Below are positions 1 through 49,400 of a stretch of DNA of 64,000 nucleotides, one piece after another. The position numbers were made by a program, and so were the translations under genes. The stretch is from positions 1,966 to 65,965 of the forward strand of contig JAQTZF010000001.1 in assembly GCA_028687915.1 (NCBI GenBank), written 5' to 3'. The DNA is from Candidatus Daviesbacteria bacterium (lineage in GTDB: Bacteria; Patescibacteriota; Microgenomatia; Daviesbacterales; UBA10151). Under the pieces are notes generated by a model. It ran no database searches. It was not told the origin of the DNA and saw nothing but the letters and a program-made list of their open reading frames with translations. Within the stretch, counting starts at the first letter, position 1. Every line of letters starts with the position of its first letter.

Positions 1-230
1 TTTCAGGGTGCGGAGGAGCTTCTACTGTTATTCATGTTAACTTTGATACTTTTCCTGCTGGAGCTCAAACTATTTACTATTATTATGGTAACCTTTCAGC
101 CTCAGATGGTTTTAATCTGGCTGATTTTGCTACTCAGGCTTCTAATTATACTGTAGGTTCTTTGGGATCAGAGGAAAAAAGTGTGGGACCAGTAGCTTAT
201 TGGGGATTTGATGAAGGGCAAGGCCAAACC
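1..230 (+). repeat. Segmental duplication: nt 1-230 are identical to 5110-5340 (tandem paralogous genes)
   Basis: Direct comparison shows no mismatches over ~230 nt. Further identical blocks at 760-860/5950-6050, 2090-2400/7320-7640, 2780-2940/8050-8200 and 3600-3830/8810-9040. Confidence 0.85.
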
Positions 231-23525: not shown

Positions 23526-26201
23526 CTATTTAATAAATTTAATTGAAGATAAAATTGTGTCCAGCTGCTTCATGTTTTTATCACCTACAGGTGTAACTTT
23601 GAGGTGTAGGATATTTTGTTTTTGAGTTAATATAAATTCCAAAGTCTGAGATCCGTTTGCTTCCACCCAAAAAGCTGCTGTAGCATCAAATCCAGGAATT
23701 TCTGCTAAGCCTTTTTTATCTAATTTACCAGAGAACTTAAGCAAACTTTTAGCTACCCAATCCTCAGATTTGCCTGTTAGTGTTCCCCCATAAAAACTAA
23801 TTACAAATTCACTATCAGGTGTTGATAAAGTAGCTACCCCATTTTTTTCAATTATTTTCCAATCCCCCGGATACTTAAAAGAGAACTTTTGAGTTTTTTG
23901 TTCGTATGATTTCCAGTCAGCACTGATTGAACCTGCCAAAGCTTGCCCAGTTATTTTTGCCAGTTCATTTTGGGCTTCCTGTTTGATCTGTGGATTGATT
24001 TCACCCAAACCAACCAAATATTGAAGCTGTTTTTTAGCCTCTTCTGTTTGTCCCCCAGCCTCATAAGCCTTGGCTAAATTTAACCTAACTTCCAAAGCAG
24101 TAGGATCAGCATCCACAGCTTCCTTAAAATATTTTATAGCAGAAATTAAGTCACCTTTGTTTGCGGCAAAGATCGCCATCCTATTAGTAACCTCCACAGA
24201 AAAAGGAGCAATAGCATAAGCTTTTAATATATAATCTTCAGCTTTCTTTAAAGCAGCTGTCTGCTCTTCTTTAGAAGGCGCACTTTGTGAAATACCAAGC
24301 AAATAATCCTCCATCGCAATATAACTCATCCCATATTCCTGTAATAACAGATGATAGGCAGCATTGTAATTTCTTTCCAAATAAAATGGTTTATGTTCAA
24401 AGAACTTGGGATCTTTAAATTTATAATTAAAAGAATCATCAGAAGGAGTTAATAAATCATCAGCTGTTAACATTCTATAAGCTAAACCACTAATCACCGG
24501 CTTTAAAATCTTGGGATCAGGTTTATATTTACCTTCATCAGTTCCAGCAAGTACTGTTTCCCTAAATACCATCGGGGTCACATAAACAGGATGTCCGTGA
24601 TCGATTAACCATTTAATATACCAATTCATTACCTCGTTATACTCTTCCAAACGATCTTTTTTAATCATATCTTCCAGCTCTGGTGGCATTAAATCAGGAC
24701 GGTGGGTGCGTAAATTATCCCTATACCAAGGCAAGATATACCACATATTTGCAACAACCGGAAAAACATCATTTTTACCCAAAACATCATATTGATAAAA
24801 AGTTAAGGAATTAAAAAAATCACCAGAGCCTATAAGAACAGCCCCCCTGGGCAAATTTGAGTATAAGTTGTCTGCATACTCCAGAGTAGTAATATGTGAA
24901 CTTCTATCCAGTTTTGGCAGCCACCAAATAAGAGGAATAAGCACAATTAAAACAAGCGCTAAAAATATAGATTTAGGATTTAGGAATTTTTGCTTTAAAC
25001 TGATTAAAATCTTTATTAATAGACTGAGACCTGTACCTATCAAAATAGTAAAGATAACATAGCTGGCAATAAACCAACTTTCCTGATTTCCAGAAAGATA
25101 TAACCCCCCAAAAATCAGGTTGGTTATAGGAACTGAGATGAGCATTAAAAATAATCTCCAGTTTTTTCTCAATAAATAATAGCCACCCATTAAAATTAAG
25201 GGCACTAATACCGGAGTGAATTGCAAAAACAAAAGGTAAAAATATCTGCCTACTGATTTAGCAAAAATTTGTGATGAACCGGTAAACCCATTTATTGAAT
25301 TTGTTCTGGGATCATTAATGTCTAATCCTTCCCCTTTCAAATGTCCCCAGAAAAGTTCTGGTGTTTGAGGGTCTCCCCAATTTAAGAGTGGGTGCTGCAG
25401 GGCTCTGATGGGCAAATAAGAGTACACCAGAGCTGTTAACCCCAGCACAATTGCCACCACTAAAATAAATCTCTTAATTCCTACTTTTTTCCAGAAAAAA
25501 GTACCTGCGATAATAAGCGCCGGTACAGCCTGTACAATTGTGGGGTTAGTGCCGGTTGAGAGTCCCAAAATAACTGCTCCTAAGATTAAACGTTTGGTGG
25601 AGATTTTACCTGATTCAGGAATCAAAATTACTAATCCCAATAAAGATATCATCATTAAATTAGTTAAGATATAGCTTTCTGTATTTAGAGATTGAGACCA
25701 AAATTGATATGAAAAAGCTAAAATTAAGGTTGAAGCCAAACTGATGGCCTGAATCATCAGAGGTGTTAACTTGAGCATATTCTTAAAATAGCCTGTGAAT
25801 AGATTTTTATCTTCCCTGCCTTCTTTTATAAGCGAAGCTTGAAAACTTCGTTTGAAAGATGAGCTTTCAAACTTGTTTACAAAGAAAAAATTATTACTGA
25901 TTAATTTAACCAGCAAAAAATAAACCCAGGTTAAAACACCAAGAGCAGCAACAATTGATAAAAGCTGCATCCTAAAAAGTACTGAACCAAATGGGATTTT
26001 AGTAAACATGTGACCAACCATCACATAAAATGGAAACCCTGGTGGATTGGGAATGCCAGGTTCAAATGCAGCCGCAATCATTGTGCCTGCATCAATATAA
26101 AGAATAGAAGGAGCTAAGGTTTTTAAATAAATTCCCCCACAAAACAACCAGATAATTAAGATAAAGGGTAAATGAGGAAATTTACGAAGCATATTTTTCA
26201 T
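23526..26201 (-). CDS. Polytopic membrane glycosyltransferase-like protein (DUF2723/GT-C-like) with C-terminal TPR repeats
   Basis: 891 aa. N-terminal LYIDAGTMIAAAFEPGIPNPPGFPFYVMVGHMF resembles the DUF2723 signature (D.GE.IA.A...G..HPPG.PLF). More than 10 TM helices, then a soluble C-terminal region with TPR-like helices (AYHLLLQEYGMSYIA..., AKAYEAGGQTEEAKKQL). Confidence 0.6.
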   Translation of the reverse strand: MKNMLRKFPHLPFILIIWLFCGGIYLKTLAPSILYIDAGTMIAAAFEPGIPNPPGFPFYVMVGHMFTKIPFGSVLFRMQLLSIVAALGVLTWVYFLLVKLISNNFFFVNKFESSSFKRSFQASLIKEGREDKNLFTGYFKNMLKLTPLMIQAISLASTLILAFSYQFWSQSLNTESYILTNLMMISLLGLVILIPESGKISTKRLILGAVILGLSTGTNPTIVQAVPALIIAGTFFWKKVGIKRFILVVAIVLGLTALVYSYLPIRALQHPLLNWGDPQTPELFWGHLKGEGLDINDPRTNSINGFTGSSQIFAKSVGRYFYLLFLQFTPVLVPLILMGGYYLLRKNWRLFLMLISVPITNLIFGGLYLSGNQESWFIASYVIFTILIGTGLSLLIKILISLKQKFLNPKSIFLALVLIVLIPLIWWLPKLDRSSHITTLEYADNLYSNLPRGAVLIGSGDFFNSLTFYQYDVLGKNDVFPVVANMWYILPWYRDNLRTHRPDLMPPELEDMIKKDRLEEYNEVMNWYIKWLIDHGHPVYVTPMVFRETVLAGTDEGKYKPDPKILKPVISGLAYRMLTADDLLTPSDDSFNYKFKDPKFFEHKPFYLERNYNAAYHLLLQEYGMSYIAMEDYLLGISQSAPSKEEQTAALKKAEDYILKAYAIAPFSVEVTNRMAIFAANKGDLISAIKYFKEAVDADPTALEVRLNLAKAYEAGGQTEEAKKQLQYLVGLGEINPQIKQEAQNELAKITGQALAGSISADWKSYEQKTQKFSFKYPGDWKIIEKNGVATLSTPDSEFVISFYGGTLTGKSEDWVAKSLLKFSGKLDKKGLAEIPGFDATAAFWVEANGSQTLEFILTQKQNILHLKVTPVGDKNMKQLDTILSSIKFIK

Positions 26202-26324: not shown

Positions 26325-28112
26325 ATGGGAAGAAAAACAAAACTAAAAATTCTAAAACAAGAAGCCCGTAAGCAGGAACTAAAACAAATTCAAGCTCAAA
26401 AATTTGATTCTAAAAATATTTTATTAAATAAGATTTTATTTATTTTTACATTACTCTCTGTTTTACTGGCTATTTTATCTCTCGCATTGGTAGTTTTTAA
26501 ACCAGGTTTACCTTCTGGACATGACCTTATTTCCCATGCTTTCCGTTCTAAAATATTTATTGAGGCTTTAAAGACAGGACAATTCCCTGTCAGATGGGTG
26601 GATTGGAGCAACAATAATTTCAGCGGACCTTTTTTCAATTTTTATCAGGTTGGATATTATTATTTGATTTATTTTATTAATTTAATCTCTTTTTCCATTT
26701 ATGATTCAATTAAAATTTTAATTGTTGGTTCCTGGTGGCTTGGTGCCTTATTTATGTTTCTATATACACGTCGTTTTGGAACACTTCCAGCGTCTCTCTC
26801 GGCATTAATTTATGCTTTTACCCCCTATACTATTTCTGATTTTTTTGTCAGGGCATCTTATCCTGAATGCCTGGCTATTTCTTTTTGTATCGGCGTTTTG
26901 TGGGCAACTGACAGAATTCTTGTTACTGCAAAAACTTATTATGGCATTCCCCTGGCCCTTTGTGTGGCTGGTCTTATCCTGACCCACCTGCCCACCGTGG
27001 TAATAATGGTACCTGTTTTAATTGGTTACTTTTTCCTCCTTCTTTTTAATAAAGAAATAAAGCTAAAAGGGTTTTTGCCGTTTTTAGTTGCAGGATTATT
27101 GGGACTTGGTTTATCAGCCTTTTATCTACTCCCTTCTCTTTTTGAACTAAACTTAGTCAAAAGTTCATTATTAACCTCTTCTTATTATGATTTTCATCCC
27201 CACTTTGTTTATCTACAGCAATTATTTTCTACTTTTTGGGATTATGGAATATCTACTGCAGGGCCCCTGGATGGAATGTCTTTTCAGGTGGGAATTATCC
27301 AATGGATTATTATCTTTTTAGCTTTAACACTCACAATTTACTATCTTCTTTATAAGAAAAATCAAAAAAATACTTCTCATTTAATCTTTTGGTTATTAAC
27401 TTGTTTATACAGCTTCTTTTTTATTCATGAAGCCTCCTTATCTTTTTGGGAAAATATTCAAACCATTGCTTTTATTCAATATCCCTGGAGGTATTTAATG
27501 ATTATTCCAGTAGCCAGTGCTATTTTAGGCAGCTTATTGCTACAGGTATTTACAAAAACATGGCAACAATCACTCGTAATTTTTCTGGCGCTTTTTGGAG
27601 TTTTTATTTTCTATAAACCATACCTTAAACCAGCAACATTCCTCCCAACTGATTACTTTAAGTTTGAAACATCTGATTGGCAAAAAAGCGAAGCAGCAAA
27701 ATACGCAATTCTAGAAGAAGGATATGAACCAAAAACAGCAGAATTAATTCCACAGGGAAATGTTAAAAAGTGGACTATTGATACGGAACAAGCTCAAATA
27801 GAAGAAAAAGCTTTTTTAAATCACTATAAAGATTTTATTACCAAATCAAGTGAACCTGTAATATTTACATTAAATACACACTACTTTCCTGGCTGGAAAG
27901 CCTATATTGATAATATGGAAACTCCAATTGAAACAACACAATACTTTAGTTTTATGAGAATTTCTGTTCCAATAGGATTACATAGAGTAGAATTTAAATT
28001 TACTAATACACCTGTAAGATCAGCTGGAAATGCTATCTCTACCCTCTCTTTAATGTTTATGATTATTTATACAGGAGTCCTACTGTGGAAGTTAAAAAAG
28101 GAGCCAGATTAA
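26325..28112 (+). CDS. Polytopic membrane protein, GT-C-like (ArnT/PMT/YfhO-like), function unassigned
   Basis: 595 aa, ~12 predicted TM helices with a C-terminal soluble domain. Divergently arranged relative to the DUF2723 gene. Confidence 0.5.
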   Translation: MGRKTKLKILKQEARKQELKQIQAQKFDSKNILLNKILFIFTLLSVLLAILSLALVVFKPGLPSGHDLISHAFRSKIFIEALKTGQFPVRWVDWSNNNFSGPFFNFYQVGYYYLIYFINLISFSIYDSIKILIVGSWWLGALFMFLYTRRFGTLPASLSALIYAFTPYTISDFFVRASYPECLAISFCIGVLWATDRILVTAKTYYGIPLALCVAGLILTHLPTVVIMVPVLIGYFFLLLFNKEIKLKGFLPFLVAGLLGLGLSAFYLLPSLFELNLVKSSLLTSSYYDFHPHFVYLQQLFSTFWDYGISTAGPLDGMSFQVGIIQWIIIFLALTLTIYYLLYKKNQKNTSHLIFWLLTCLYSFFFIHEASLSFWENIQTIAFIQYPWRYLMIIPVASAILGSLLLQVFTKTWQQSLVIFLALFGVFIFYKPYLKPATFLPTDYFKFETSDWQKSEAAKYAILEEGYEPKTAELIPQGNVKKWTIDTEQAQIEEKAFLNHYKDFITKSSEPVIFTLNTHYFPGWKAYIDNMETPIETTQYFSFMRISVPIGLHRVEFKFTNTPVRSAGNAISTLSLMFMIIYTGVLLWKLKKEPD

Positions 28113-29289: not shown

Positions 29290-30345
29290 TTAGTTTGTGT
29301 AATAAACAGTAATTCTGACTGCATCTACCCAGGCAAAAGCTAATGTTGCTTTGGCAGTTAAACGAACACCGAATGTAGAACTATTAATATCTGCTGGTGT
29401 CCAAGATATTCCCCACAAATCGCTAACTCCTCCATATGTACTATACGCAAGTCCAGATGTAGACCAATTGGCTGCTTCGGCTTTATTTACAGTTCCCATC
29501 ACCCCTCCTTTAAGGATTAATACTTTATCATCATTAATCACTATTGGAGTTGTGGTGTAATGCGATTCTTTTTTAATTTCCACTGTAATACCAGTAATAG
29601 TTGCCCCAGCAGGAATATTGAAGCCAAAATTGGTGGCATCTAAATAATTAGTGTACACAATACCATGAGAACCAATACCAGCAACAGCAGGTACACCATC
29701 TTCAGTAAAAATATTCCCAACATTTGCCCAAATAGTAATTCCATACCCAGTTGTATTCGCTGCAGAACCTGCAAATTTTGTTACGCTAGAAGGAGTGCTT
29801 GTTGGTGAAGGAGTTGGAGAGGATGTCGGCGAAGCTGTAGGTGTTCCAGTTGGAGTTGAAGTTGGACTAGAAGTAGGTGTTATTGTAGGAGATGCAGTAG
29901 GTGTTGGGGCAACAGCAATATATGTTTCTTGTAATGAAACAACACAGAAGCATGTTGATACGCTGGTATCGCAAGCAGTACCAACTGGATGATTTTCTAA
30001 AGCTGCACAAACCTGAAAACCCTTGTTAGCTTCTCCATAAGAAATAAGATAATTTCCCCCTTCAGCAGGAGCTGGTACTACACCACTAGCAAAACTCTCA
30101 CCAGAAAGTGGGGTCAAATAGTCTCCCTTAGTAGTAAACTGAGTTTCCATAGCAGTAGCAATGGCTTTAACATCACCCTTTCTTTTTGCATCTCTAGTTG
30201 AACGTTGAACATTTGTGTAAATTATTAACCCTATACCTGTTAGGATAATAATCACAGCTATAACCATCAGTAGTTCTACCAAAGTAAACCCTGCTACTTT
30301 TTTGTTCTTTATGGCTTTAAGTCTTTTCATTCTTAAATAATCCAA
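29290..30345 (-). CDS. Type IV pilin-like protein (class III signal peptide) with a PT-rich linker and a large C-terminal domain
   Basis: Prepilin motif KKVAG|FTLVELLMVIAVIIILTGI (Gly-1, Phe+1, Glu+5, hydrophobic helix). PTPTASPTITPTSSPTSTPTGTPTASPTSSPTPSPTSTPS linker. The start may be the second Met, at 30330. Confidence 0.7.
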   Translation of the reverse strand: MDYLRMKRLKAIKNKKVAGFTLVELLMVIAVIIILTGIGLIIYTNVQRSTRDAKRKGDVKAIATAMETQFTTKGDYLTPLSGESFASGVVPAPAEGGNYLISYGEANKGFQVCAALENHPVGTACDTSVSTCFCVVSLQETYIAVAPTPTASPTITPTSSPTSTPTGTPTASPTSSPTPSPTSTPSSVTKFAGSAANTTGYGITIWANVGNIFTEDGVPAVAGIGSHGIVYTNYLDATNFGFNIPAGATITGITVEIKKESHYTTTPIVINDDKVLILKGGVMGTVNKAEAANWSTSGLAYSTYGGVSDLWGISWTPADINSSTFGVRLTAKATLAFAWVDAVRITVYYTN

Positions 30346-30713
30346 TACATGTAATCTTTTAGTGTTAAAATGATTAAAATTAAGAAATTAATAAAAATAA
30401 ATGCAATTACCCAATGAGGAAATTTTAGTTTTTTACTAAATACCAAACCTAAAGATAAAAGAGCAAGATATAAATATAACAAGATGAGTCCATAATCCAC
30501 AGGGCAATTAAATCCTGCATTTCTGTGAATCATGTCTACAGGAAAAAAAGTACATGGAATAGAAATAAATAATGACTCAGGTAAATTTTTAAAAACCGTC
30601 AATATTATCCCCAAATCACGAGATAAAAAAATAACAAACAAAAGATTTACTATAAAAATAATTAAAAGATAGTAGCCTACAAACCTAGCTAAACTTTTAT
30701 AATTAATTTTCAT
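30333..30713 (-). CDS. Small polytopic membrane protein (the ORF extends to 30875 but the likely start is Met55, which avoids overlap with the upstream pilin gene)
   Basis: Hydrophobic ORF with 3-4 TM helices between two pilin genes. No motif recognised. Confidence 0.4.
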   Translation of the reverse strand: MKINYKSLARFVGYYLLIIFIVNLLFVIFLSRDLGIILTVFKNLPESLFISIPCTFFPVDMIHRNAGFNCPVDYGLILLYLYLALLSLGLVFSKKLKFPHWVIAFIFINFLILIILTLKDYMYWII

Positions 30714-30792
30714 TTCTTTAAAAATAGTAGCAATAAAACAAAAAACAAGCAACCAATTATTAAAACAAAATTTAATAATGTTAAGGGTAAAC

Positions 30793-31944
30793 TTAAAGTG
30801 CACATCCAGTACCACTATTATAAAGGGCACTAATTTCTGAAGAAGAAAGTGCTCGATTATATACTCTAAGATCATCTAAAAATCCACTCATTACATTTAC
30901 ACTTCCACCATAAGAACCAATATAAAGTGTTCCTACCACCCTATTAAAAGTAGTTTCCCAAGTACCAGCACATTGTTCGGAACCATTTAAATACGATTTA
31001 ATATTGTTATTATCCCAAACCCAAGCAATATGATTATAAGTATTCAAAGGGATTGATGATATGGGGATACTGCATGAATATATATCTGAATCCGCATTGT
31101 AGGCTTGTAACCCTCCAGATCCGTTAAAATAAAATATTGGCTTACTTCCAGTAAAGCTAACTATACCCTTAGATACTTGACTACTTGGAATTTTTATCCA
31201 TCCTGCCACAGTCCCTGTTTCCCCAACAATTCCATCACTTGCCGGGAAACTTGAAACCGCTATATAATCATCCACCCCATCAAAACTACACCCACCCCTA
31301 TTCTTCCCAGTAATTGTACAATCCATACCTGTACCGTTAGTAGCTACTCTAGCTAGTCCATCATATCTATTGCTTGATGAATCAATTAATGTTTGATCTC
31401 CTGAAACATTATCATCCATCTTCCAATAACCAGCTAACCCTGAAGTTAATACCCCATAAGGGTCACAGGAAGGGCTAGAACCACCGCCTCCCCCTCCGCC
31501 ACCTCCTCCTAAAAAAGTAGAGTTTTGAATAGAAGAAATACATTGGCAAGTAGAAGAGCTGGCATAACATGGTTGTCCTCCCTGAGAACCAAGTCCAACA
31601 CAAATAGCAAATCTGTCTATTGCCTGAGTAATACAATTACTGGATGGACCAATTAAACAAGGATAATCTCCTCCTTCAGGCATTTTAGGGATATTTCCTG
31701 ATGAAAAATCAGTGTTAGTTAAAGTTTGATAGGAACCTAAATTAGAATATTTAATTTCATAAGCTTTAGAAATATTGTTTAAGTCTGTTTTTCTTTTGGT
31801 ATCCCTGGCAGCATTAGTAACACCGCTAAAAACAGCTACTCCAATCGTTGCAAGTATAGCAAGAACAGCTATCACCACTAGAAGTTCAATCAGAGTGAAG
31901 CCTCTGCTTCGCGCTTGTGCACTAAAACCCTTTATCCCCTTCAT
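30793..31944 (-). CDS. Type IV pilin-like protein fused to a C-terminal LamG (concanavalin-like lectin) domain
   Basis: N-terminal RG|FTLIELLVVIAVLAILATIGVAVFSG is a canonical prepilin cleavage site with Glu+5. Poly-Gly linker (GGGGGGGGGSS). The C-terminal region (GLAGYWKMDDNVSGD...GFLDDLRVYNRALSSSEISALYNSG) matches the LamG modules of the giant proteins at 1..9616. Confidence 0.75.
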   Translation of the reverse strand: MKGIKGFSAQARSRGFTLIELLVVIAVLAILATIGVAVFSGVTNAARDTKRKTDLNNISKAYEIKYSNLGSYQTLTNTDFSSGNIPKMPEGGDYPCLIGPSSNCITQAIDRFAICVGLGSQGGQPCYASSSTCQCISSIQNSTFLGGGGGGGGGGSSPSCDPYGVLTSGLAGYWKMDDNVSGDQTLIDSSSNRYDGLARVATNGTGMDCTITGKNRGGCSFDGVDDYIAVSSFPASDGIVGETGTVAGWIKIPSSQVSKGIVSFTGSKPIFYFNGSGGLQAYNADSDIYSCSIPISSIPLNTYNHIAWVWDNNNIKSYLNGSEQCAGTWETTFNRVVGTLYIGSYGGSVNVMSGFLDDLRVYNRALSSSEISALYNSGTGCAL

Positions 31945-32044
31945 ATATTAAGGTTACTACAAGTTCAAAAGAGTGGTCAAATTATTATTTCCAAGATTAC
32001 ACACATTGCTACAAAAAACAAAAAATCTCCCTTTCAGGAGATCT

Positions 32045-32170
32045 TTTGATAAACCCGGCAATGACATATTGTCCCGGGGCCTTTCGACCCTAGTATCGTC
32101 GGCGCTGAAGCGTTTGACTGCTGAGTTCGGGAAGGGATCAGGTCGTTCCGCCTCGCTCAAATCACCGGAC
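32045..32170 (-). rRNA. rrf: 5S rRNA
   Basis: The reverse complement reads CCUGAUCCCUUCCCGAACUCAGCAGUCAAACGCUUCAGCGCCGACGAUACUAGGGUC, which aligns to E. coli 5S CCUGACCCCAUGCCGAACUCAGAAGUGAAACGCCGUAGCGCCGAUGGUAGUGUGGGGUC. Ends are approximate. Confidence 0.7.
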
Positions 32171-32254
32171 GTTTATAATAACAAATTTTGATCTAAGAAT
32201 CAAGAATTAACATTAACAACATGCCTAGAAAAGGCATTCTATTTCTCTTATAAT

Positions 32255-33175
32255 ATGTCTATTAAAAAAGAAGCACTCAGAACCAATCAGACTTGTCCAG
32301 AATATACCCTTCGTTTAGTTGTTGATAAAGAGTGTCCTTTTGACTGCATATATTGCTTTCAAGAAGGAACAAACTATTCTAAATCTAGTTCCCATGAAAA
32401 CCCTGACTTCCTAAGCCTAGTTGATAAGTTTGCAGCCGTAAGACCGATCTCTAAAATACGTTTAACAGGCGGAGAGCCTTTAATTTATGCCCCTCTCCTT
32501 CCTCTATTAAAAGGTTTAAAAAGAAAATTTCCATCTCTTGATCTAGGCATAACGACAAACGGAAGTACACCAAGAATTTTACAAAACGTAATAGAAGAGT
32601 TTACTGATACTCCTTTACATATGAACATTTCAATCCCAAGCCTAAATGAAGAAATGTTTAAGAAGCTAACAAATACAGCAAGGCTACCAGAAGTTTTATC
32701 CTCAGTTAATCAGTTGAGAGAAAGTAGTTTTTCTTCTCACGCAAATATTAATTTTATATTTTTAGAAGGAGTTAATGACCTTGAACTACCAGAAATGTCT
32801 GCTTTTGCTAGAGTAAATAATTTACCCTTAAAAGTTATGCAATTAACAGTTAATGAATTTAATTCTGATGCACTTAGAAGACTAAATACAGGTTCAGCAA
32901 ACCAAAGATTAATCACAGAACGAATACAGGATTTAGGATATCTTCCATCACAGCACCCAGATTCGTTTATTAAAGATGGTCATATAATTCGGGTTATTGG
33001 ACAAGTTGCACCACAAACTGATCAATATTTCAGAGATTATAAAACATTTAGGCTATATTACGACGGGAGAATTGGTATTTGTGGTGATAATGATGGAATA
33101 ATCAGACCAATTAATATGGATAATCCAAGACAAACTTTTTTAGAAGTAGTAACTGAAGCTGAAAAATTCCTCTAA
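32255..33175 (+). CDS. Radical SAM enzyme, MoaA/viperin-like, lacking the C-terminal auxiliary-cluster Cys triad
   Basis: CPFDCIYC (CxxxCxxC) at residues 26-33. RLTGGEPL, GITTNGS, NISIPSLNEEMF and FLEGVND all align to MoaA blocks. The C-terminus has RLYYDGRIGIC but no CxxC...C second-cluster motif. Confidence 0.8.
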   Translation: MSIKKEALRTNQTCPEYTLRLVVDKECPFDCIYCFQEGTNYSKSSSHENPDFLSLVDKFAAVRPISKIRLTGGEPLIYAPLLPLLKGLKRKFPSLDLGITTNGSTPRILQNVIEEFTDTPLHMNISIPSLNEEMFKKLTNTARLPEVLSSVNQLRESSFSSHANINFIFLEGVNDLELPEMSAFARVNNLPLKVMQLTVNEFNSDALRRLNTGSANQRLITERIQDLGYLPSQHPDSFIKDGHIIRVIGQVAPQTDQYFRDYKTFRLYYDGRIGICGDNDGIIRPINMDNPRQTFLEVVTEAEKFL

Positions 33176-33902
33176 CACGATTACAGTTATAAATATATTC
33201 TTTGACTTGGAATAAGCGAAGCTTGCGAGCTTTGCTCTTAAAGAACGTTAAAAATTTTCTCAGAAAATTTAGGGTACACCTTTCGCAAAGCGAAAGGCAA
33301 GCTATGCTTACTTCCCGTCAAAGTGGCTTTGGGCGTCTTTGCCACCAAAGACGCAAAATAAATAGATGAAAATAAGAGAAAAAATTTTGTACTCAAACTT
33401 ATAGGATTAGTTAGGTAGAATTGGATATTTTACACTTCAATCCTGTGGCTAACGCCCGGGACCTAGGTGCTTTGCACTCTGGAATGTGAATACGATATTA
33501 GTCAAAGGCTTTGAGCCAAAAAAACTCAACGATGACCATTAGTACTCTTAAGCTAAACACCTTACGATGCTTACACTGAGAGCCTATCAACCCGGTAGTC
33601 TTCCGGGGGTCTTAAAGATTCCTAATCTCAGGATCTGCTTCGTGCTTAGATGCTTTCAGCACTTATCAGGAAAGAACGTAGCTACCCGGCGCTGCCATTT
33701 TATGACAACCGGCACACTAGAGGTTCCCTCGTCTCGGTCCTCTCGTACTAGAGACAACTTCCCTCAAGAATCAAAACGCCCATACTGGATAGAGTCCAAC
33801 CTGTCTCGCGACGGTTTGAACCCAGCTCGCGTACCACTTTAACTGGCGAACAGCCAGACCCTTGGGACCTTCTACAGCCCCAGGATGTGATGAGCCGACA
33901 TC

Positions 33903-34213
33903 GCTGTCATTATTTGTCTACAATTACTTGTAGGATCAGACTATACCTTCACCCTGCTTTGCAGGGGCTAGCCTTTTATCCAAGTTTCAAAACCTTGAAT
34001 CCGATCTTTCGATCAAGTCGTTACGGGGTACGTTCATGTAAACTACGTTCGTGTAAACCAAACCGTAATAAACTGAATGTACTTCCCTCGGTGTTGTCCA
34101 TCATTACTGATTAGGAGTTCACCGATTTTAGCTAGTATTTTTTCAAAAAGACTTTTTATATTAAGTTCTAACAGAGCTACAGAATTACTCCTGCCGCACC
34201 CCAATGTATTAAG
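33903..34213 (-). other. Putative ORF-less group I intron in the 23S gene at the L2500-equivalent site
   Basis: A 311-nt AT-rich insert separates ...GGCACCU from CGAUGUCGGCUC. Removing it restores the E. coli PTC sequence GGCACCUCGAUGUCGG exactly. The 5' exon ends in U and the insert ends in G, as in group I introns. No ORF longer than 75 aa. Confidence 0.5.
34029..34058. repeat. Two tandem copies of the 15-nt unit TACGTTCRTGTAAAC (inside the L2500 intron)
   Basis: TACGTTCATGTAAAC followed by TACGTTCGTGTAAAC. Confidence 0.7.
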
Positions 34214-34251
34214 GTGCCGAACGATACCGTCCTTGTGGACTGTTGGGTATC

Positions 34252-34285
<34 letters not shown>

Positions 34286-34597
34286 ATAAGCCTACTCCCT
34301 CCCACGAGGAAAGTAGGGATCACTAAAGCCTGCTTTCGCACCTGCTCGACTTGTAGGTCTTGCAGTCAAGCACACTGTATACTTTTGCGCTTAAATCTCC
34401 GTTGCCATTGGAGATAAGTGTACCTTTGCACTCCTCCGTTACTTTTTTGGAGGAAACCGCCCCAGTTAAACTGCCCGCCAGACCTTGTTACGGTGCCGGA
34501 TTACGGCTACCGCTAGAGATTTAAAAATCTAAAAAAGAGGTGTTTCATTGTCGCCGAAGCTCCCTCCTACTCTACATAAATAAATTTTCAAATCAGG

Positions 34598-34635
<38 letters not shown>

Positions 34636-34842
34636 AAGTATGGGAAGGCCGCATCTTCACAGCCACTGCAATTTCGCCGAGTCTATCCTCAAGACAGTTC
34701 CTAAGTCGTTCTACCTTTCGTGCGGGTCTGAACTCCATTTTAAAACTGTCATTCTAAATAAATTTAGAAATCTTACATTTGTTTTTATGATTTAATGATT
34801 TTTAAATCCTCTACGTCGCCATAGAGATCGGACTATATCTTG

Positions 34843-34865
34843 TACGTTCATGTAAACTGAACGTA
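34843..34865. repeat. Hairpin repeat TACGTTCA-TGTAAAC-TGAACGTA (in the domain-IV intron)
   Basis: 8-bp perfect inverted repeat with a 7-nt loop. Confidence 0.7.
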
Positions 34866-34947
34866 CTCCAACGTGTAGTCTCTGAGGGTTTTTTGATATA
34901 AATATCAAAATCTTCCCTGCTGATTGACTCCACTAACAGATTGTCAC

Positions 34948-34970
34948 TACGTTTATGTAAACTAAACGTA
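34948..34970. repeat. Hairpin repeat variant TACGTTTA-TGTAAAC-TAAACGTA (in the domain-IV intron)
   Basis: A C>T change in the 5' arm is matched by G>A in the 3' arm, a compensatory pair. Confidence 0.7.
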
Positions 34971-36015
34971 GTACTGTTAGATACTGAGTTATTCCAGCAT
35001 ATAGTTGGATTTTCACTACTTAAGGTTTTTTGCATACTAATCTAGCAATTTTCAACGAATTCCCGAGTGTTGTACATTGCTGTACATTCTAGCAAGTTTG
35101 TTACCGCACCTACCAGACAAGGAATTTCGCTACCATAGAACAGTTATAGTTACTGCTGCCGTTCACCAGATCTTAGACCCCTTCCTCATCCAGTCTTACG
35201 ACTGGAGTCAAGAGAAGTTTTAAATTACTGGCACTGGGCAGGTGTCAGCCCCTATACATCAGCTTTCGCTTTAGCAGGGACCTGTGTTTTTGCTAAACAG
35301 TCGCTCAGGATCATTAACTGCGTCCCACATTGCTGCGGGAAGGACATCTTGCAAACTTACGTCCAGCTTTTGTTGCCGAGTTCCTTAAGGATAGTTCTCT
35401 CGATCGCCTGTGTATACTCAACTCGCCCACCTGTGTCGGTTTGTGGTACGGCTTGATACTGCTCCCTTTACGAAACTTTTCCTGAAAACAGAACATCACT
35501 TTCTTACGTATTCGTAACTCGAATATGCACTCCGACAAGTCTTGCGACTAATCGGAATGTTCCGACTTGCGTCGGACTGAGAGCGGATTTACCAACCCTC
35601 ACTTCCTTGTCACTTAAACCCCCATATAGAGGGCAAAGTTATTCCCATTTTGTCCTTCCGTAAAGTATTCACGAACAGCACATATACCCGAATTTTGACG
35701 GGTAATCCATCGACTACGCCATTTGGCCTCGTCTAAGGTACCGATTAACCCTATTCTGATTAACATTGAATAGGAAACCTTGGGCATTCGGCGTTAATGT
35801 TTTTCACATTAATTTCGCTACTCATACCGGCATTCTCACTTCTATACGCTCCACCCCGCCTCACGACGAAGCTTCATTGCCTATAAAACGCTCCCCTACC
35901 ACGTCACAATCATGTAACTGATTGTGACATCCGTAGCTTCGGTAGAACTTTTAGCCCCGGTTCGTTGTCGGCGCGAAATCCCGTAGTAGACCAGCGAGCT
36001 GTTACGCTTTCTTTA

Positions 36016-36052
<37 letters not shown>

Positions 36053-36617
36053 AAGGAATTTCACATCCTTTAACACTTAAAGTTCATTTAGGGACCTTAG
36101 CTGTCGGTCTGGGTTGTTTCCCTCAGGACCGCTCCGCTTAGCCGGATCGGACTGACTCCTGCTACACACGTTAGTATTCGGAGTTTGATTGGATTGACAG
36201 TCTTGCGACCATCAGATCCATCCAGTGCTCTACCCCTAACGTGATTCCACAGGGCTATACCTCAATATATTTCGGGGAGAACCAGCTATCTCCGAGTTCG
36301 ATAGGCATATCACCTCTAACCACACCTCATCCTAGACTATTGATACAGTCACAAGTTCGGGCCTTCCCCGCCTTTTACAGCAGGTTCGCCCTGGACATGG
36401 TTAGCTCACTCGGTTTCGGGTCTGCCATATTCTCCTAAATCGCCCAGTTAGGGCTCGCTTTCACTGCGCCTACAAACATTCCTGTTCTTAGACTTGGAGA
36501 ATAAGACAACTCACCGGTTCATTCTTCAAAAGGCACACGGTTGTCCTAATAAATTAAGACTTCCGCAGCTTGACAACATACGGTTTCAGGTACTATTTCA
36601 CTGAGCGTTTCGCTCTT

Positions 36618-36657
<40 letters not shown>

Positions 36658-37336
36658 TGAAAGTATATTTAGCCTTAACAAGTGGTCTTGCTAGCTTCAC
36701 CCAGGATTACACGTGTCCTAGGTTACTCAGGAATCCGACCACGGCAGTCCAGATTTCGCTTACAGGGCTATCACCCTCTTTGGCATTCCTTTCCAGGAAT
36801 TTCAGCTATCCGTTCTACTCGCTACTGTCGGTCCTACAACCCCACGGGTTTCAAGTATTGCTACCTGAAGTGATCTGTGGTTTGGGCTTTTCCCTTTTCG
36901 CTCGCCACTACTGGGGGAATAAACTATTGTTCTCTTTTCCTGCGCTTACTTAGATGTTTCAGTTCAGCGCGTACCCCTTCCAACACTATTAATTTATGTT
37001 GGAATAATTGCCGATTAAGACAATTGGATTATTCCATTCGGAAACCTCTGGATCATAGCTTCTTAGCAGCTTCCCAGAGACTATCGCGGCTTAGTGCGTC
37101 CTTCATCGGTACTTTCAACCAAGGCATCCACCGTATGCATTATTGTTGAGTATCTTTTGGCTTGTAAATTCTCCGATAAATCGGAGAAAAATTTGGCCTT
37201 CTTCCCAAATTACAAATAAATTTGTAATTGTTTAAATCGTATTCACATTTCAAAGTGCAAAATCCAGATTATCTGGAACTCAGAAAACCGGAAATTCCGA
37301 TGTTCTGAGCCTCAGATTATCCAACCATCCCCTTGG

Positions 37337-43043: not shown

Positions 43044-44515
<1,472 letters not shown>

Positions 44516-44739
44516 AAGTGAATTTGTATCCAGCTCCACTAATAAATCAATGAAGCTTTCTACAAGCTTCACTCAAAGAATTGACAAAAGATTTTCCCTA
44601 ATAAATTAGGGATTGCACTCTTGTTTTTCGATTTACCTAGACTTGGTAAATCATTTTCCCACCACTTTTCCGGAATCAACAGCCTAAAAAGGCATGAAAA
44701 AACCGAAAAAGGGTAAAAACTTTTCCGGTTGTTAATGTG

Positions 44740-44881: not shown

Positions 44882-46276
44882 TCAAACAGCTGACTGGCTA
44901 GCTAAAGTTCTTAATCCGGGAATAGAATTTGGCTGATGATTTACCACTCTTTTAACATCTTCTTCCTCTGCTCTTTTTCCATTTTCGGCTATAGTAACTG
45001 GAATAAACTTTCTATTAAATTCCAAACCTCTTTTTAAAATTTCCAACCTAGATTGTAATCCCAATTTTCCAATTGCAGAAACAAATAAACGGTAAGATCC
45101 ATCACCTTGATAAAATAAACTAACTACTTCAAGGATATTTTTAGTTAAGATCCCGCTTTTTACAGCCTGGTTTTCTATCTCTGTGAGCATATTAGCTGCT
45201 ACTATCCTCGCATCAATTATTTCCTCCCCTTCAGCACCTTCAATAACAGATTCTACAGCCAATTTTAAAACCTCATCTCTGTTTGCTAAAGCATCTTCAT
45301 CTAGAACAAATTTATACTGAGCTTCTTTTTGAACTCTCTCTTCAGCTTTTTCGATTGCTTCAACTTCCTCCACAACTGATACTTTTTGTTCTGATTTTAA
45401 TTGTGCTTGAACCATCATTTGAGTAACAATTTCAGGTTCATTTCCTGCTTGAATTAAAGCATTTTCAACTAATTCAACTGCCTGGGTTTCAGCTATTCCT
45501 GCTGTAATTAAGCTTTCATAAGCTATGGTTGCCTGAGCTATTTCAGGATAAGCTTGATCACTTATTTGAAGTATTTCTGATGTTTCTATTGAAGTTGTTA
45601 CTATCTCAGATAAAGCTGGAGATTGTTCTGATAATGAAACCAGTTCTTCTGCTGCTTTAAAAACTGGTTCGTCATTAATTTGATCCGTATCCAAAGAGAT
45701 TAATTCTGGAATTGGTTGATGAATAATATTTTCATCTATTAAATCAAAAATAGCTTCAGATTGAACAATTTCTTCAATCACTGGTGCTTTCAAATCCGCA
45801 AATTCTTCTGGTTGAGAGATTGGTTCTTCAATATCTGGCATAAAATTTGTTTGTTCAAAAATAGTATCTATGTTTGTTTCTATCGGGATATCAAAAACAC
45901 TTGAAGGTCTTGAAGATTCTAAAATTGATTCTAAATATGTGGGTGGTGTTAATATATCTTCTGCAAAATTATCTGTAAAAGCTTCCTGAAAAATTTGAGG
46001 TACCTCAAAACTTGGTATTGTAGGATCTAAATTTATATCAGCTAAACTCTCATTAAAAATTGACGGAATTGGAGTTATATCTATTGAAGGACTACTAAAA
46101 ATATCTACACCTGGATTTAAAGATCCCCCACTTAAGCCTGATGTTTCAAAAGAAGAAAAATTACTAAAAGAGGAAAATTCTGAACCCATACCGATTCCAG
46201 GGCTGGAAAGCGCAGATATACCGGCACCGACTGAAGAAAAGCTATCTACTGAGATTGATTCTCCTTCAATACTCAT
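44882..46276 (-). CDS. Acidic, Ser/Glu/Ile-rich hypothetical protein
   Basis: 464-aa ORF, strongly acidic and low-complexity at the N-terminus, with a more ordered C-terminal ~150 aa. Immediately upstream of the 16S leader. Confidence 0.5.
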   Translation of the reverse strand: MSIEGESISVDSFSSVGAGISALSSPGIGMGSEFSSFSNFSSFETSGLSGGSLNPGVDIFSSPSIDITPIPSIFNESLADINLDPTIPSFEVPQIFQEAFTDNFAEDILTPPTYLESILESSRPSSVFDIPIETNIDTIFEQTNFMPDIEEPISQPEEFADLKAPVIEEIVQSEAIFDLIDENIIHQPIPELISLDTDQINDEPVFKAAEELVSLSEQSPALSEIVTTSIETSEILQISDQAYPEIAQATIAYESLITAGIAETQAVELVENALIQAGNEPEIVTQMMVQAQLKSEQKVSVVEEVEAIEKAEERVQKEAQYKFVLDEDALANRDEVLKLAVESVIEGAEGEEIIDARIVAANMLTEIENQAVKSGILTKNILEVVSLFYQGDGSYRLFVSAIGKLGLQSRLEILKRGLEFNRKFIPVTIAENGKRAEEEDVKRVVNHQPNSIPGLRTLASQSAV

Positions 46277-46404
46277 CTAAAGCCTCCTTTCTAACTAACA
46301 CTAATTTATGGAATTTTACCAGAAAGAACCCGAATAGTCAAATTAAAATTGACAAGCCTGTGAACCCAGTGTTACTGTTTGATAAGCACATAAACTCTTT
46401 TTTT

Positions 46405-49400
46405 ATGCTCACAAAACTAACAGATTTCATAAAAAATTACTGGAAAATCGGGATTTTTATTTTAATTCTTCTTTCAGTCCCCCTTACAGTCTTTCTGGTC
46501 ACTCAAACACAAATTTTCAGAAGCCGTGCTTCTGCCATCCCTGTGGCTTTTGAAGGAAACGGGGTAACTTATACTAACGGCCAATATTTTACTTCAACTC
46601 TAACCGGCATTAAATTAAAATTAACGTCTCCTTTTGCAACTTCCGGTACTCAATCATTTAATGCAGGCAGCACTCAGGATTTCTATGGAAAAAGGCTTAG
46701 CTTTCTTAAGCTTTTCGGACAGACAAAAATCACAGAAGCTGTTAGAAATGCCGCCACAGGGCATAATATTTATCACGCTCCAGGTGTAGTGGTAGATAAA
46801 AGCAGTACGCCGAATAAAATTTATGAGGTAGATTCAGGAAACAGCAGAATTTTAGGGTTTAACGGGATCGGATATTGTTCTCAAAATCCAGCTCAGTCTT
46901 GCACTATTGATAGTGATTGCGGGACTGGAAATAGCTGTAATATAGACGGGAATAAAAATGCAGATATTGTTTTTGGTCAACCTGATTTTGAAAGCGGAGC
47001 CTGTAACAAAGATGCAAATCTCGGAATTAGCAAAAAACCCGATGCTTCTTCTCTTTGTTTTATGGGTTATCCTGTAGCTACTAACACAGCTGAAGCCTGG
47101 CAAAGAAACAATATTGAAGTTGACAGCGAAGGAAATCTTTATGTGGCCGATTATTGGAATAACCGAATATTAAAATATAATCAGCCTTTCAGCCAGGATA
47201 AAACAGCAGGCAAAGGTGACACTGTGGCTGATTTTGTTTGGGGTCAAAATGATTTTTCCTCCAACGGAATCAATCAGATTAATCCGTATTTCAGCACTTC
47301 AACCAGAACACCATCTAATAAATCTTTGTGGATCAGTTTTGGCTTTGGAACAGCAGATCATGTTTCATCACGCGGAGTATCAGTTGATGCACAAAACAAC
47401 CTTTGGGTGGCTGATACTTTTAATAACCGTGTCCTTCGTTTTCCCAAAGATTCCCAAACTGCTGATCTTGTGCTAGGACAGGCTGATTTTAATTCTTTCG
47501 GTTGTATTCCTAATGGTCCTTTAAATAGATTTTGTACACCAACTTTGGCAAGAATAGATCCTGAAAATGGCGATCTTTATGTTTCTGATGAATATCCGAA
47601 TAGTTTTCGTGCTAGAATTCTGGTTTTTCACCCTCCGTTTACTAATGGTATGGCAGCTTCAAAAAGCATTGTTATCAACCAAGGTCCACCCTGGTTTGAA
47701 GGCAGATATTTATTTCAATCAACAGGTTTTAACTTTAATCCATTCAAAGAAGGAGAATACGCAGCAGGGAGACTTTGGATCAATGAGCTTTCTGCCTACC
47801 GGACTACTTTAATTGACGCAAATGGCAACATTGTTAAAGTCATCGGAGCAACAACTAATACTGGCCAGGGTGGCGATACTCAATACGGTAGTGAATGCGG
47901 TGATATATATAATCCCGCTCAATTCAATTTATGGTGGCCTGGAGGATCGATTGGTTTTGACAGCGCAAACAACATTTATTTATCCGATGAATTTTTTGGC
48001 CGTGTTTCCAGATATAAACTGCCTTACCAGCTACGAACAGTTGGAACTAAAACTTGTTTACCACTTGCAAATGGAGGTTTATTCCCAATGAGTAAAAGCA
48101 TCAAACAGGATAACAGATTAGGTGAATCAATCGGATTAGTAGTGAATAATAACCAGTTGATTATTAAAGATGAAAGCTCAATCAAAGTTTGGAATGATTA
48201 TTTACAAAAATCCATCGGCAGTAATCCCGATATAATACTCACAGGCGGCATGCCGACAAGAATTTTATTCAGTGATGCTGTTGATGAAAATAACAGGTTG
48301 TGGATGTATACAGACAGAGGTGATTTACGTGTATATCAACTTCCGTTTAAAGGCAATGATGTGCCTTTGACTGATAATATAAAACTATATTGGAAAGATG
48401 ACGGGACAGCGGTCAATGCTCATTTTTGGGAAACAGGGTTGACTGTAGATAAAGTAAACAAAGCCATTTATATCTCTGACAGAGAGAAAAACAGAGTACT
48501 CAGAATAAGCAACTATAATGAATTTTTAAATCACGCTAACAACAACTTATTAGTTGATTTGGTTCTGGGACAATCAGATAAAACCGGCGCATTGTGTAAT
48601 CACGGAAGCAACACACCTTTAGCTGACGGAATATGTTCACCTTATGGATTAAAATTTGATAAAACAGGTAATCTTTTTCTGATCGAAAATAATTATGAAT
48701 GTCACGGTAATGACCGTATTTCTATTTTCACGGCGTCTGATCTGAAGAATGCTTCAGGTTTATTCCCCATGTTAAAGGCTCAAAAAGTACTTATTGCAAA
48801 TGACCTGACTTCCAAAGGACCATGTGCATATACCACAGTAGATAAACCTGGCTCCCCTGTCAGTTTAGCTTTTGATAGTCATAATCGCCTGGTTGTGGGA
48901 AATGACGGATATTATGGAGACAATCAAAAAAGACAATTAAAGCAATTGTGGTATTACTCAGATCCGTTAAATAAAACTACCCCTGACAAATCAATAGAAT
49001 TGCCCATAGGCAGCGCAGGAGAACTTGCCTTTGATAAAGATGATAATCTGTTTATCCAGGATCATACTTGGTACAGGGTTTGGGGTATTAATTATTATCA
49101 GGATGATGATTGGGGAATTATATCCACCACCACACCCACACCTACCCCTACACTTATTTCTACACCTACAGCTACAGCTATTCCGACACCAACCTCAGCT
49201 CCCGAGCCAAAAACATGTGCACAAGTAATTACTTCAGCTATGAATCCTTTAACCGGAAACTGTGAAGAATTCCCAAGCCCCTGTGAGGTACCATCAGGCT
49301 GGACATTAAATTGCACAAGTCCTGTTGTTACAGCAACTCCAACCCAATCTCCAAATCCTAACCTTATTTCTTATGGTGCTTTCAGCTACACAACTTCAGC

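Follow-up and report, generated by a model that had tools for sequence, protein, structure and literature searches.

Type IV pilins are recognised by a short, positively charged leader that ends in glycine and precedes a stretch of about 20 hydrophobic residues, with a glutamate at position +5 (IPR012902/PF07963/TIGR02532). The major pilin, i.e., the most abundant subunit of the filament, is as a rule a small protein whose gene lies within or close to the pilus locus. Type IV pili are the leading candidates for the structures by which the ultrasmall, host-dependent CPR bacteria recognise and attach to their hosts. Raynaud et al. (2021, PNAS, PMC8179133) counted more than 1,200 modular pilins in InterPro, with 264 different architectures. 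The combination IPR012902-PF13385, a prepilin methylation motif with one Laminin_G_3 domain, ranks first in their Dataset S1 with 229 proteins, and the first-listed representative of their Figure 8, which presumably stands for this top-ranked architecture, comes from the CPR bacterium Candidatus Magasanikbacteria (A0A0G0IU57; PMC8179133). The class is common in CPR bacteria and has been defined by bioinformatics only (PMC8179133); an experimentally characterised pilin with a PF13385 head was not found in the literature. All modular pilins that have been characterised are minor subunits (PMC8179133, PMC9934059). PilC of S. sanguinis is such a minor pilin, which binds specific glycans and was modelled at the tip together with PilA and PilB (Shahin et al., 2023, PMC9934059). 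In Nanosynbacter lyticus TM7x (Saccharibacteria) pili contribute to host binding, exogenous sugars are inhibitory, and PilX1 and PilX2 are lectin-like minor pilins, the former with an L-type-lectin-like beta-jelly-roll (PMC11623550).

Here we describe a 383-aa pilin encoded in a 64-kb stretch of DNA, which was analysed as a whole and is referred to below as the window. It has the same architecture as the IPR012902-PF13385 class, within which it is distinguished by a tether of ten consecutive glycines (Gly10) and by its placement in a Daviesbacteria-type subfamily. With S. sanguinis PilC it shares the combination of a Glu5 pilin module and a lectin module of the ConA-like superfamily. PilC, however, has an extra Ig-like module, a short linker and a gene inside the pil locus. 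Galectin-7 was the structure on which the PilC lectin module was superposed; the head of the 383-aa pilin is instead nearest to LamG domains of the AbnA Domain4, trans-sialidase and BoNT Hc-N type. PilC was absent among the sequence and fold matches listed for the 383-aa pilin and, therefore, the parallel is one of architecture and superfamily only; by this analogy PilC would be its best functional counterpart. TM7x PilX1 and PilX2, which we compare by description, are likewise CPR pilins with C-terminal accessory domains, but their genes lie in pilus loci whereas the gene of the 383-aa pilin is an orphan, the phyla differ, and the PilX1 domain was missed by NCBI CD-Search, whereas the head studied here is a clear PF13385 domain.

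Results

The 383-aa pilin is encoded by an ORF on the minus strand at 30793..31944, coordinates that proved exact (Table 1). An identical protein is present in NCBI as MDD2822471.1, from a Candidatus Daviesbacteria MAG in which it lies on a contig of 1,096,538 bp, and is named there [quoted passage not shown]; the gene had been annotated before now, but generically. The window contains a 16S rRNA gene, a 5S rRNA gene and an unlinked 23S rRNA gene interrupted by two group I introns, and its GC content is low. Because of these rRNA genes, the low GC content and the exact match to a Candidatus Daviesbacteria protein, the genome is assigned to the CPR/Patescibacteria, and the organism is regarded as an ultrasmall bacterium of the groundwater type. 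The pilin gene is an orphan that lies away from any pilus locus and is surrounded by housekeeping genes; it adjoins rpsA, and the 5S rRNA gene (32053..32169) is located upstream. Co-transcription with this 5S rRNA gene, which would have implied high expression, is ruled out by the terminator with its 13-bp stem in between. In a six-frame motif search of the window, prepilin-type leaders were found in the 383-aa pilin and in its neighbour at 29290..30345, and in no other protein. No pilus assembly genes were detected in the 64-kb window, either with Pfam in ORFs of at least 150 aa or with PilB, PilT and PilD motifs in six frames.

Table 1. Positions of the pilin gene, its parts and related features in the window; residue numbers refer to the protein encoded.
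Feature	Position	Strand	Evidence
Modular type IV pilin with LamG head, whole gene	30793..31944	-	ORF; Pfam N_methyl and Laminin_G_3; NCBI MDD2822471.1
Class III (prepilin) leader, residues 1-15, the last being Gly15	31900..31944	-	Sequence; TIGR02532 and PF07963 above cut-off
Alpha1 helix of pilin module, residues 16-64, N-terminal half hydrophobic, Glu5	31753..31899	-	AF2; profile matches
Small globular pilin head, residues 65-141, beta-sheet, Cys-rich C-terminus (…SSTCQCISSIQ)	31522..31752	-	AF2; alignment with the L008 pilin
Flexible linker, residues 142-159, including Gly10	31468..31521	-	pLDDT <50; mixed Gly codons
LamG / concanavalin A-like beta-sandwich head, residues 160-383	30796..31467	-	PF13385; AF2; Foldseek; PDB profile match
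Second modular pilin, 351 aa from TTG	29290..30345	-	N_methyl match, Pro/Thr linker, different head
Small hydrophobic ORF between the pilin genes, 160 aa with about 4 hydrophobic segments	30333..30815	-	Called as gene on Logan contig
Intrinsic-terminator-like hairpin in the gap between 5S rRNA gene and pilin gene	32019..32048	-	13-bp stem and T-run
Giant protein, 6 Laminin_G_3 modules; ORF start falls inside a module	162..4391	+	Pfam, 6 stretches, E 1.9e-141
Giant protein with N-terminal signal/anchor, DUF2341 and 6 Laminin_G_3 modules	4823..9616	+	Pfam; N-terminus

The N-terminus of the 383-aa pilin is MKGIKGFSAQARSRG/FTLIELLVVIAVLAIL, where the slash marks the leader/mature junction, and represents a class III (prepilin) signal in which residue +5 is Glu. 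The junction reads RG/FTLIE (RSRG/FTLIELLVVIAVLAIL), and cleavage by PilD is predicted before Phe16. The prepilin leader recognised in the initial annotation was recovered by two curated models, Pfam N_methyl (PF07963; 35.0 bits, cut-off 21.2) and NCBIfam TIGR02532 (33.4 bits, cut-off 16.3). Weak partial NCBIfam matches to GspG/H/J and ComG pilins were also obtained at this end, all of them far under the family cut-offs and spanning the shared N-terminal helix only. The AlphaFold2 (AF2) model, which was based on an alignment of 51 full-length homologues and has a mean pLDDT of 82.8, contains a pilin fold with pLDDT values mostly above 90: an alpha1 helix at residues 18-64 (pLDDT >90) followed by the strands of a small pilin head at residues 96-99, 111-117 and 133-139. 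The N-terminal part of a profile of 51 homologues matched the solved structures of Geopilin, GspG, Thermus PilA and S. sanguinis PilE1, and the matches run past the helix (query residues 11-112 for GspG 5wda and 11-106 for Thermus PilA 6xxd). On the combined profile matches and predicted structure we consider the 383-aa protein to be a type IV pilin-type protein.

The pilin module is followed by a linker (residues 142-159) that is disordered in the AF2 model (pLDDT <50). The poly-Gly hinge reported in the initial annotation was found here as ten consecutive glycines at residues 146-155. The glycine codons are mixed, which rules out the tract as a site of slippage or phase variation. Close homologues possess Gly/Ser-rich linkers of varying length.

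Beyond the linker, residues 222-372 align with the complete Pfam Laminin_G_3 (PF13385) profile (positions 1-151 of 151) with an E-value of 3.5e-21 and 76.4 bits, against a cut-off of 27.6, and the AF2 model has a beta-sandwich at residues 170-376. A Foldseek search of the PDB with this head returned 428 matches at E<=0.001. The best was AbnA Domain4 (5hon_A; E 3.2e-12, TM 0.77 normalised on target), the trypanosomal trans-sialidase lectin-like domain and BoNT Hc-N came next in rank, and the 50 matches listed (of 428) were all AbnA, trans-sialidase/sialidase or clostridial neurotoxin-complex (BoNT/NTNH) proteins. In a profile search against the PDB, the C-terminal part of the profile of 51 homologues matched the S-layer protein 4qvs (E 1.8e-32), and further matches were found with AbnA arabinanase, neurexin, tetanus toxin Hc and sialidase lectin domains. 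An ordinary pilin head fold had been named beforehand as the alternative to a LamG domain; both the profile and the structure searches gave LamG instead. The C-terminal domain is thus a true jelly-roll of the LamG/ConA-like type, unlike the head of an ordinary pilin. The start of the head (SCDPYG) and the Cys-rich end of the stem are conserved in the Daviesbacteria-type subfamily.

The pilin module could be delimited by comparison with another Daviesbacteria genome, which was found in a scan of species-representative genomes and contains a complete type IV pilus locus (L008; JACPDA010000004.1). This locus has the order pilB-pilT-pilC-pilin-pilD, followed by a pilin operon and pilM/N/O-like genes, and encodes a PilB-like (570 aa), a PilT-like (350 aa) and a PilC-like (399 aa) protein, a 180-aa pilin, a PilD-like peptidase (300 aa, with a GGGDVKL motif), a run of pilin-like proteins and PilM/N/O-like proteins. 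The first of the run is a stand-alone pilin of 137 aa (locus coordinates 7962..8375), which lies next to pilD and other pilins, upstream of the pilM/N/O-like genes, and possesses neither linker nor head. Its identity to the 383-aa pilin is 48% in the first 80 aligned residues and 41% when the entire alignment is counted. The 137-aa pilin shares the Cys-rich C-terminal motif of the stem of the 383-aa pilin and ends (…SATCYCKSNQQ) exactly where the linkers of both window pilins start, i.e., …SSTCQCISSIQ-NSTFL-G10 in the 383-aa pilin and …VSTCFCVVSLQ-ETYIAVA-PT-rich in the second pilin. Because the 137-aa pilin stops at the linker, the 383-aa protein is taken to be a complete small pilin with a tether and a head, i.e., a modular pilin, and judging from this alignment the LamG head looks grafted onto a complete pilin. 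It consists of a pilin module, a linker and a LamG domain, a family that also occurs in non-pilin proteins, as in the definition of modular pilins.

A search with the PilB of L008 yielded at least 120 matches; all of those listed were at least 77% identical and many were named Daviesbacteria, in which PilB is thus pervasive. The contig carrying MDD2822471.1 was absent among the 120 listed. Homologues of pilB, pilT, pilM and pilC occur in most Patescibacteria phyla (PMC11623550). By analogy with these relatives, pilus machinery is likely to be present in the genome from which the window derives.

The neighbouring pilin at 29290..30345 had been described as having a PT linker and a different head domain, which agrees with its N_methyl match, its Pro/Thr-rich linker and its jelly-roll head. 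Its likelier start is the ATG at 30330, giving a protein of 346 aa. The stem is homologous to that of the 383-aa pilin, and the head (residues 196-351, nt 29293..29760) is a CBM/MAM-like jelly-roll. The family of this head is also present in an apparent huge-phage structural gene block, which may hint that phages and pili have traded binding modules. The 160-aa ORF between both pilin genes has no Pfam match, no GxGDxK motif and no homologue in the fetched loci, by which a prepilin peptidase is ruled out; it is at most a tentative member of the pilin group.

Homologues of the 383-aa pilin numbered 211 at E<=1e-5. The initial annotation considered a pilin with such a head unusual, but about 95 of the best 120 of these 211 homologues contain both PF07963 and PF13385, and IPR012902-PF13385 is the most frequent of all modular-pilin architectures. 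The 383-aa pilin is, therefore, an uncharacterised addition to a catalogued class. The homologues named among the best 120 derive from Daviesbacteria, Falkowbacteria, Wolfebacteria, Pacebacteria and a Clostridia MAG. Their genes were encountered in the secY-adk interval, after rplK-rplA, next to rpsA and near trigger factor, not in pilus loci, and often in small arrays with other modular pilins that have Fib_succ_major or LamG heads. Close homologues are 58-63% identical in the stem and about 35% in the head; such a better conserved stem is expected if the head is a ligand-binding module under diversification.

The LamG head had also been described as a near-copy of modules in the two giant proteins at the start of the window, and as the same binding module deployed on both. 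The homology was upheld: each giant protein possesses six modules of the same Pfam family, with the same N- and C-terminal signature strands as the pilin head, and comparison of the head with both giant ORFs gave a best E-value of 2.4e-18 and 11 further HSPs (E 4e-11 to 0.014). The identity to the 12 modules is, however, just 24-31% in local and 21-29% in global multiple alignment, which does not agree with near-copies or one and the same module. Both strings that had been quoted from the giant protein at 4823..9616 are indeed located there, at residues 608 and 634, but the quoted blocks correspond to the consensus (GLVGYWxxDEG... and IDDVRVYNRALSxxEIxALYNA) of an alignment of 51 homologues, which come from many organisms. 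Since this consensus is shared across so many organisms, the blocks form a family signature and reveal no special tie within the genome. In a neighbour-joining (NJ) tree of the LamG modules, which is star-like and has no support values, the pilin head joins the pilin heads of other organisms (29-36% identity), whereas 10 of the 12 giant-protein modules form a clade of their own, in which the two giants pair module by module; the modules of the two proteins are also collinear. Recent copying of the head from the giants of the same genome is ruled out by its lower identity to these (21-29%) than to foreign pilin heads (29-36%) and by the separate clades. At the level of sequence, one domain family is present on the pilin and on the giant proteins, with no sign of a recently shared module. 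Among the best 150 matches of a profile search of 1.84 billion representatives there are many proteins of about 1300-1400 aa that contain six LamG stretches. The giants have an N-terminus of the Sec type, in contrast to the prepilin leader of the 383-aa pilin. They had been called wall-anchored; the protein at 4823..9616 has its N-terminal signal/anchor, but no LPXTG-type C-terminal motif was found in it, and sortase-type anchoring to the wall is therefore unsupported.

Discussion

What the analysis shows for the 383-aa pilin is its domain architecture, its folds, the point at which the head is joined to the stem, and its homology both to pilins and to LamG domains that bind carbohydrate; for its role, adhesion is, by analogy, the most reasonable. 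PF13385 domains are also encountered in protein- or lipid-binding proteins. AbnA Domain4 has been described as a carbohydrate-binding module that represents a new family (PMC9110388) and, by analogy with this relative and with S. sanguinis PilC, the LamG head is a putative binding module for carbohydrate or another ligand. We consider it probable, although by no means settled, that the protein is a modular pilin composed of a complete small pilin, a Gly-rich tether and a grafted LamG domain, which serves attachment via pili. It would most likely do so as a low-abundance adhesin subunit that displays a putative glycan-binding head on type IV pili.

The following sequence of events would be in line with this. 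The prepilin would enter the membrane through the hydrophobic N-terminal half of alpha1, after which a prepilin peptidase of the PilD type would cut after Gly15 and methylate Phe1. The pilin module would then be polymerised into type IV pili by a PilB/PilC/PilM-N-O machine, probably as a low-abundance subunit positioned at the tip or sparsely on the shaft. The tethered LamG head could recognise another cell or a surface by a ligand present there, for which a glycan is the most probable candidate, and this binding may help a host-dependent CPR bacterium to attach, while the neighbouring pilin, with its homologous stem and different CBM-like head, would provide a second specificity.

Alternatively, the prepilin N-terminus could be an export or anchor signal, or build a short pseudopilus, in which case the LamG domain would capture substrate or glycan at the cell surface. 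An analogue of such a display is the “bindosome” of archaea, formed by sugar-binding proteins that have a class III signal peptide. The orphan position of the gene and its homologues, far from pilus loci, would fit, as would the resemblance of the head to CBMs of polysaccharide-degrading enzymes. Likewise, the matches listed in a genome scan with the pilin alignment were mostly generic pilin N-termini, widespread in Planctomycetota/Verrucomicrobiota-type genomes. However, the stem is a full pilin module, homologous from end to end to a pilin of a pilus locus and better conserved than the head, and therefore seems to be under selection for subunit-subunit packing. This makes mere surface display an unlikely explanation.

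The initial annotation regarded the 383-aa protein as a major pilin. Nothing indicates that it is: the gene is an orphan, and the modular pilins that have been characterised are minor. An abundant shaft subunit with a LamG head on all or most copies would result in a lectin-coated “bottle-brush” filament, and the canonical Glu5, the full pilin module and the long flexible Gly10 linker, which could place the head outside the shaft, would permit such a filament; Raynaud et al. (PMC8179133) also considered a shaft location of modular pilins possible if the linker is flexible enough. Furthermore, the pilins of the window are all modular, and homologues are repeatedly found amid highly expressed translation genes (secY-adk, rplK-rplA and rpsA), which could mean high expression. 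Yet the 5S rRNA gene and the pilin gene have a strong terminator between them, which excludes read-through from the rRNA, and the small stand-alone pilins of L008 (137 and 180 aa) are better placed as major subunits. In the one CPR bacterium studied, the pilins that are putatively major by their expression are small as well (PMC11623550), and this, together with the minor status of characterised modular pilins, speaks against a major subunit. We regard this possibility as quite improbable.

Membership of a competence (DNA-uptake) pilus or T2SS-like pseudopilus rather than an adhesive pilus seems very improbable, since the GspG/H/J and ComG matches that recall such systems are weak, partial, limited to the shared N-terminal helix and far below the cut-offs, and since a LamG lectin-like head is not known to have a role in DNA binding. 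Natural competence has been demonstrated in Saccharibacteria (PMC10187176), but deletion of T4P-2 pilins in Saccharibacteria left competence unreduced (PMC11623550).

Implications

With a low-abundance adhesin pilin as the preferred reading, a wider and distinctly tentative idea, which we would sooner doubt than defend, is that CPR bacteria such as this one combine one conserved stem, encoded alone in the pilus locus, with scattered orphan paralogues in which that stem carries interchangeable, fast-evolving jelly-roll heads (LamG in the 383-aa pilin, CBM/MAM-like in the second pilin and Fib_succ_major in Falkowbacteria) and thereby recognise hosts in a cassette-like manner. If true, this repertoire of stems and heads would resemble the diversification of phage receptor-binding proteins. 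In a stronger form of the same idea, abundant subunits may coat the whole filament with lectins.

The architecture of the 383-aa pilin has been catalogued and the protein itself had already been annotated, and it is consequently one more example, which establishes no new principle or type of system. As an example it is a clean illustration of the grafting of a head onto a pilin. The neighbouring pilins of the window, with the same stem and different heads, illustrate how binding specificities may be swapped, and a pilin with a tethered lectin-type head represents a concrete candidate adhesin for the attachment of CPR bacteria to their hosts.

Pilin genes and their genomic neighbourhoods

The pilin-LamG genes, which encode type IV pilins with a LamG head, lie next to translation genes in several genomes. 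The rpsA gene is flanked by one in the window and also in L004, a locus from another genome, while in L002 the homologue directly follows rplK-rplA and in L003 it is inserted inside the conserved ribosomal-protein superoperon. Translation-gene neighbourhoods are recurrent sites for adhesin-type pilins in CPR genomes. In the window a small, very hydrophobic ORF with approximately four membrane-spanning segments, called as a gene in a public contig, shares 23 nt with the first pilin gene, and only 2 nt separate its end from the second. It matched no Pfam family, and the comparison loci examined contained no homologue. The TMEM260-like and YfhO-like genes occur just downstream of the pilin/S1 cluster; that their products are candidate glycosylation enzymes, which could modify the second pilin at its Pro/Thr-rich linker, is pure speculation.

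The type IV pilus locus of a related Daviesbacteria genome (L008) has the gene order pilB-pilT-pilC, a 180-aa pilin, pilD, a 137-aa pilin, approximately eight more pilin-like genes (one encoding 603 aa) and pilM/N/O-like genes. Here pilD and the pilin operon are not contiguous: a transposase-like ORF, encoded on the other strand, lies between them.

Coordinates of the features discussed (window unless a locus is named)
Feature	Position	Strand	Remark
Giant LamG paralogues	162..4391; 4823..9616	+
Adjoining gene	9694..11703
TMEM260-like protein O-mannosyltransferase	23526..26201	-	TPR repeats
YfhO-like membrane protein	26325..28112	+
Second pilin	29290..30345	-	head 29293..29760
160-aa ORF	30333..30815	-	between both pilin genes
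rRNA genes	32053..37153; 43046..44516	-
Radical-SAM gene	32255..33175	opposite to rRNA genes	between 23S and 5S
Group I introns (two)	33917..34196; 34809..35064		in 23S rRNA
1459-aa protein	46255..50634	+	NHL repeats, C-terminal dockerin type I domain
Pilin-LamG homologue	L003 10001..11080		GCA_964593745.1; between secY and adk
Complete type IV pilus locus	L008 1404..16453		Candidatus Daviesbacteria JACPDA010000004.1

The rRNA genes of the window have an unusual layout: 16S and 23S are approximately 6 kb apart, with the glycolytic genes GAPDH and PGK and tRNAs in the gap, and the 5S rRNA gene, with a promoter-like site of its own, also has a strong terminator.

Other putative surface proteins and the head of the second pilin

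As collinear paralogues, the two giant LamG proteins have six modules each, which form one-to-one pairs in the tree. The ORF of the first protein opens directly inside a LamG module without a signal peptide and, therefore, its true start may lie further upstream, or the ORF may be truncated or frameshifted. The product of the adjoining gene carries the shared DUF2341 N-terminal part, together with a Pro/Thr-rich tail. Dockerin domains occur in the 1459-aa protein of the window and in a 1161-aa protein near the pilin-LamG genes of L004, and such domains in CPR genomes point to surface assemblies of the cohesin-dockerin type.

The head of the second pilin matched no Pfam family; a jelly-roll was confidently predicted for it (model, pLDDT 93.9). 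Its relatives are leaderless proteins of approximately 190 aa. One (L088) is encoded on a 515-kb contig within a block of large genes that all run in one direction and are unannotated, one of them with collagen repeats; the block looks like the structural region of a huge phage; another (L087) has T9SS/Bacteroidota-like surroundings. This head family may represent a binding module common to phages and pilins.
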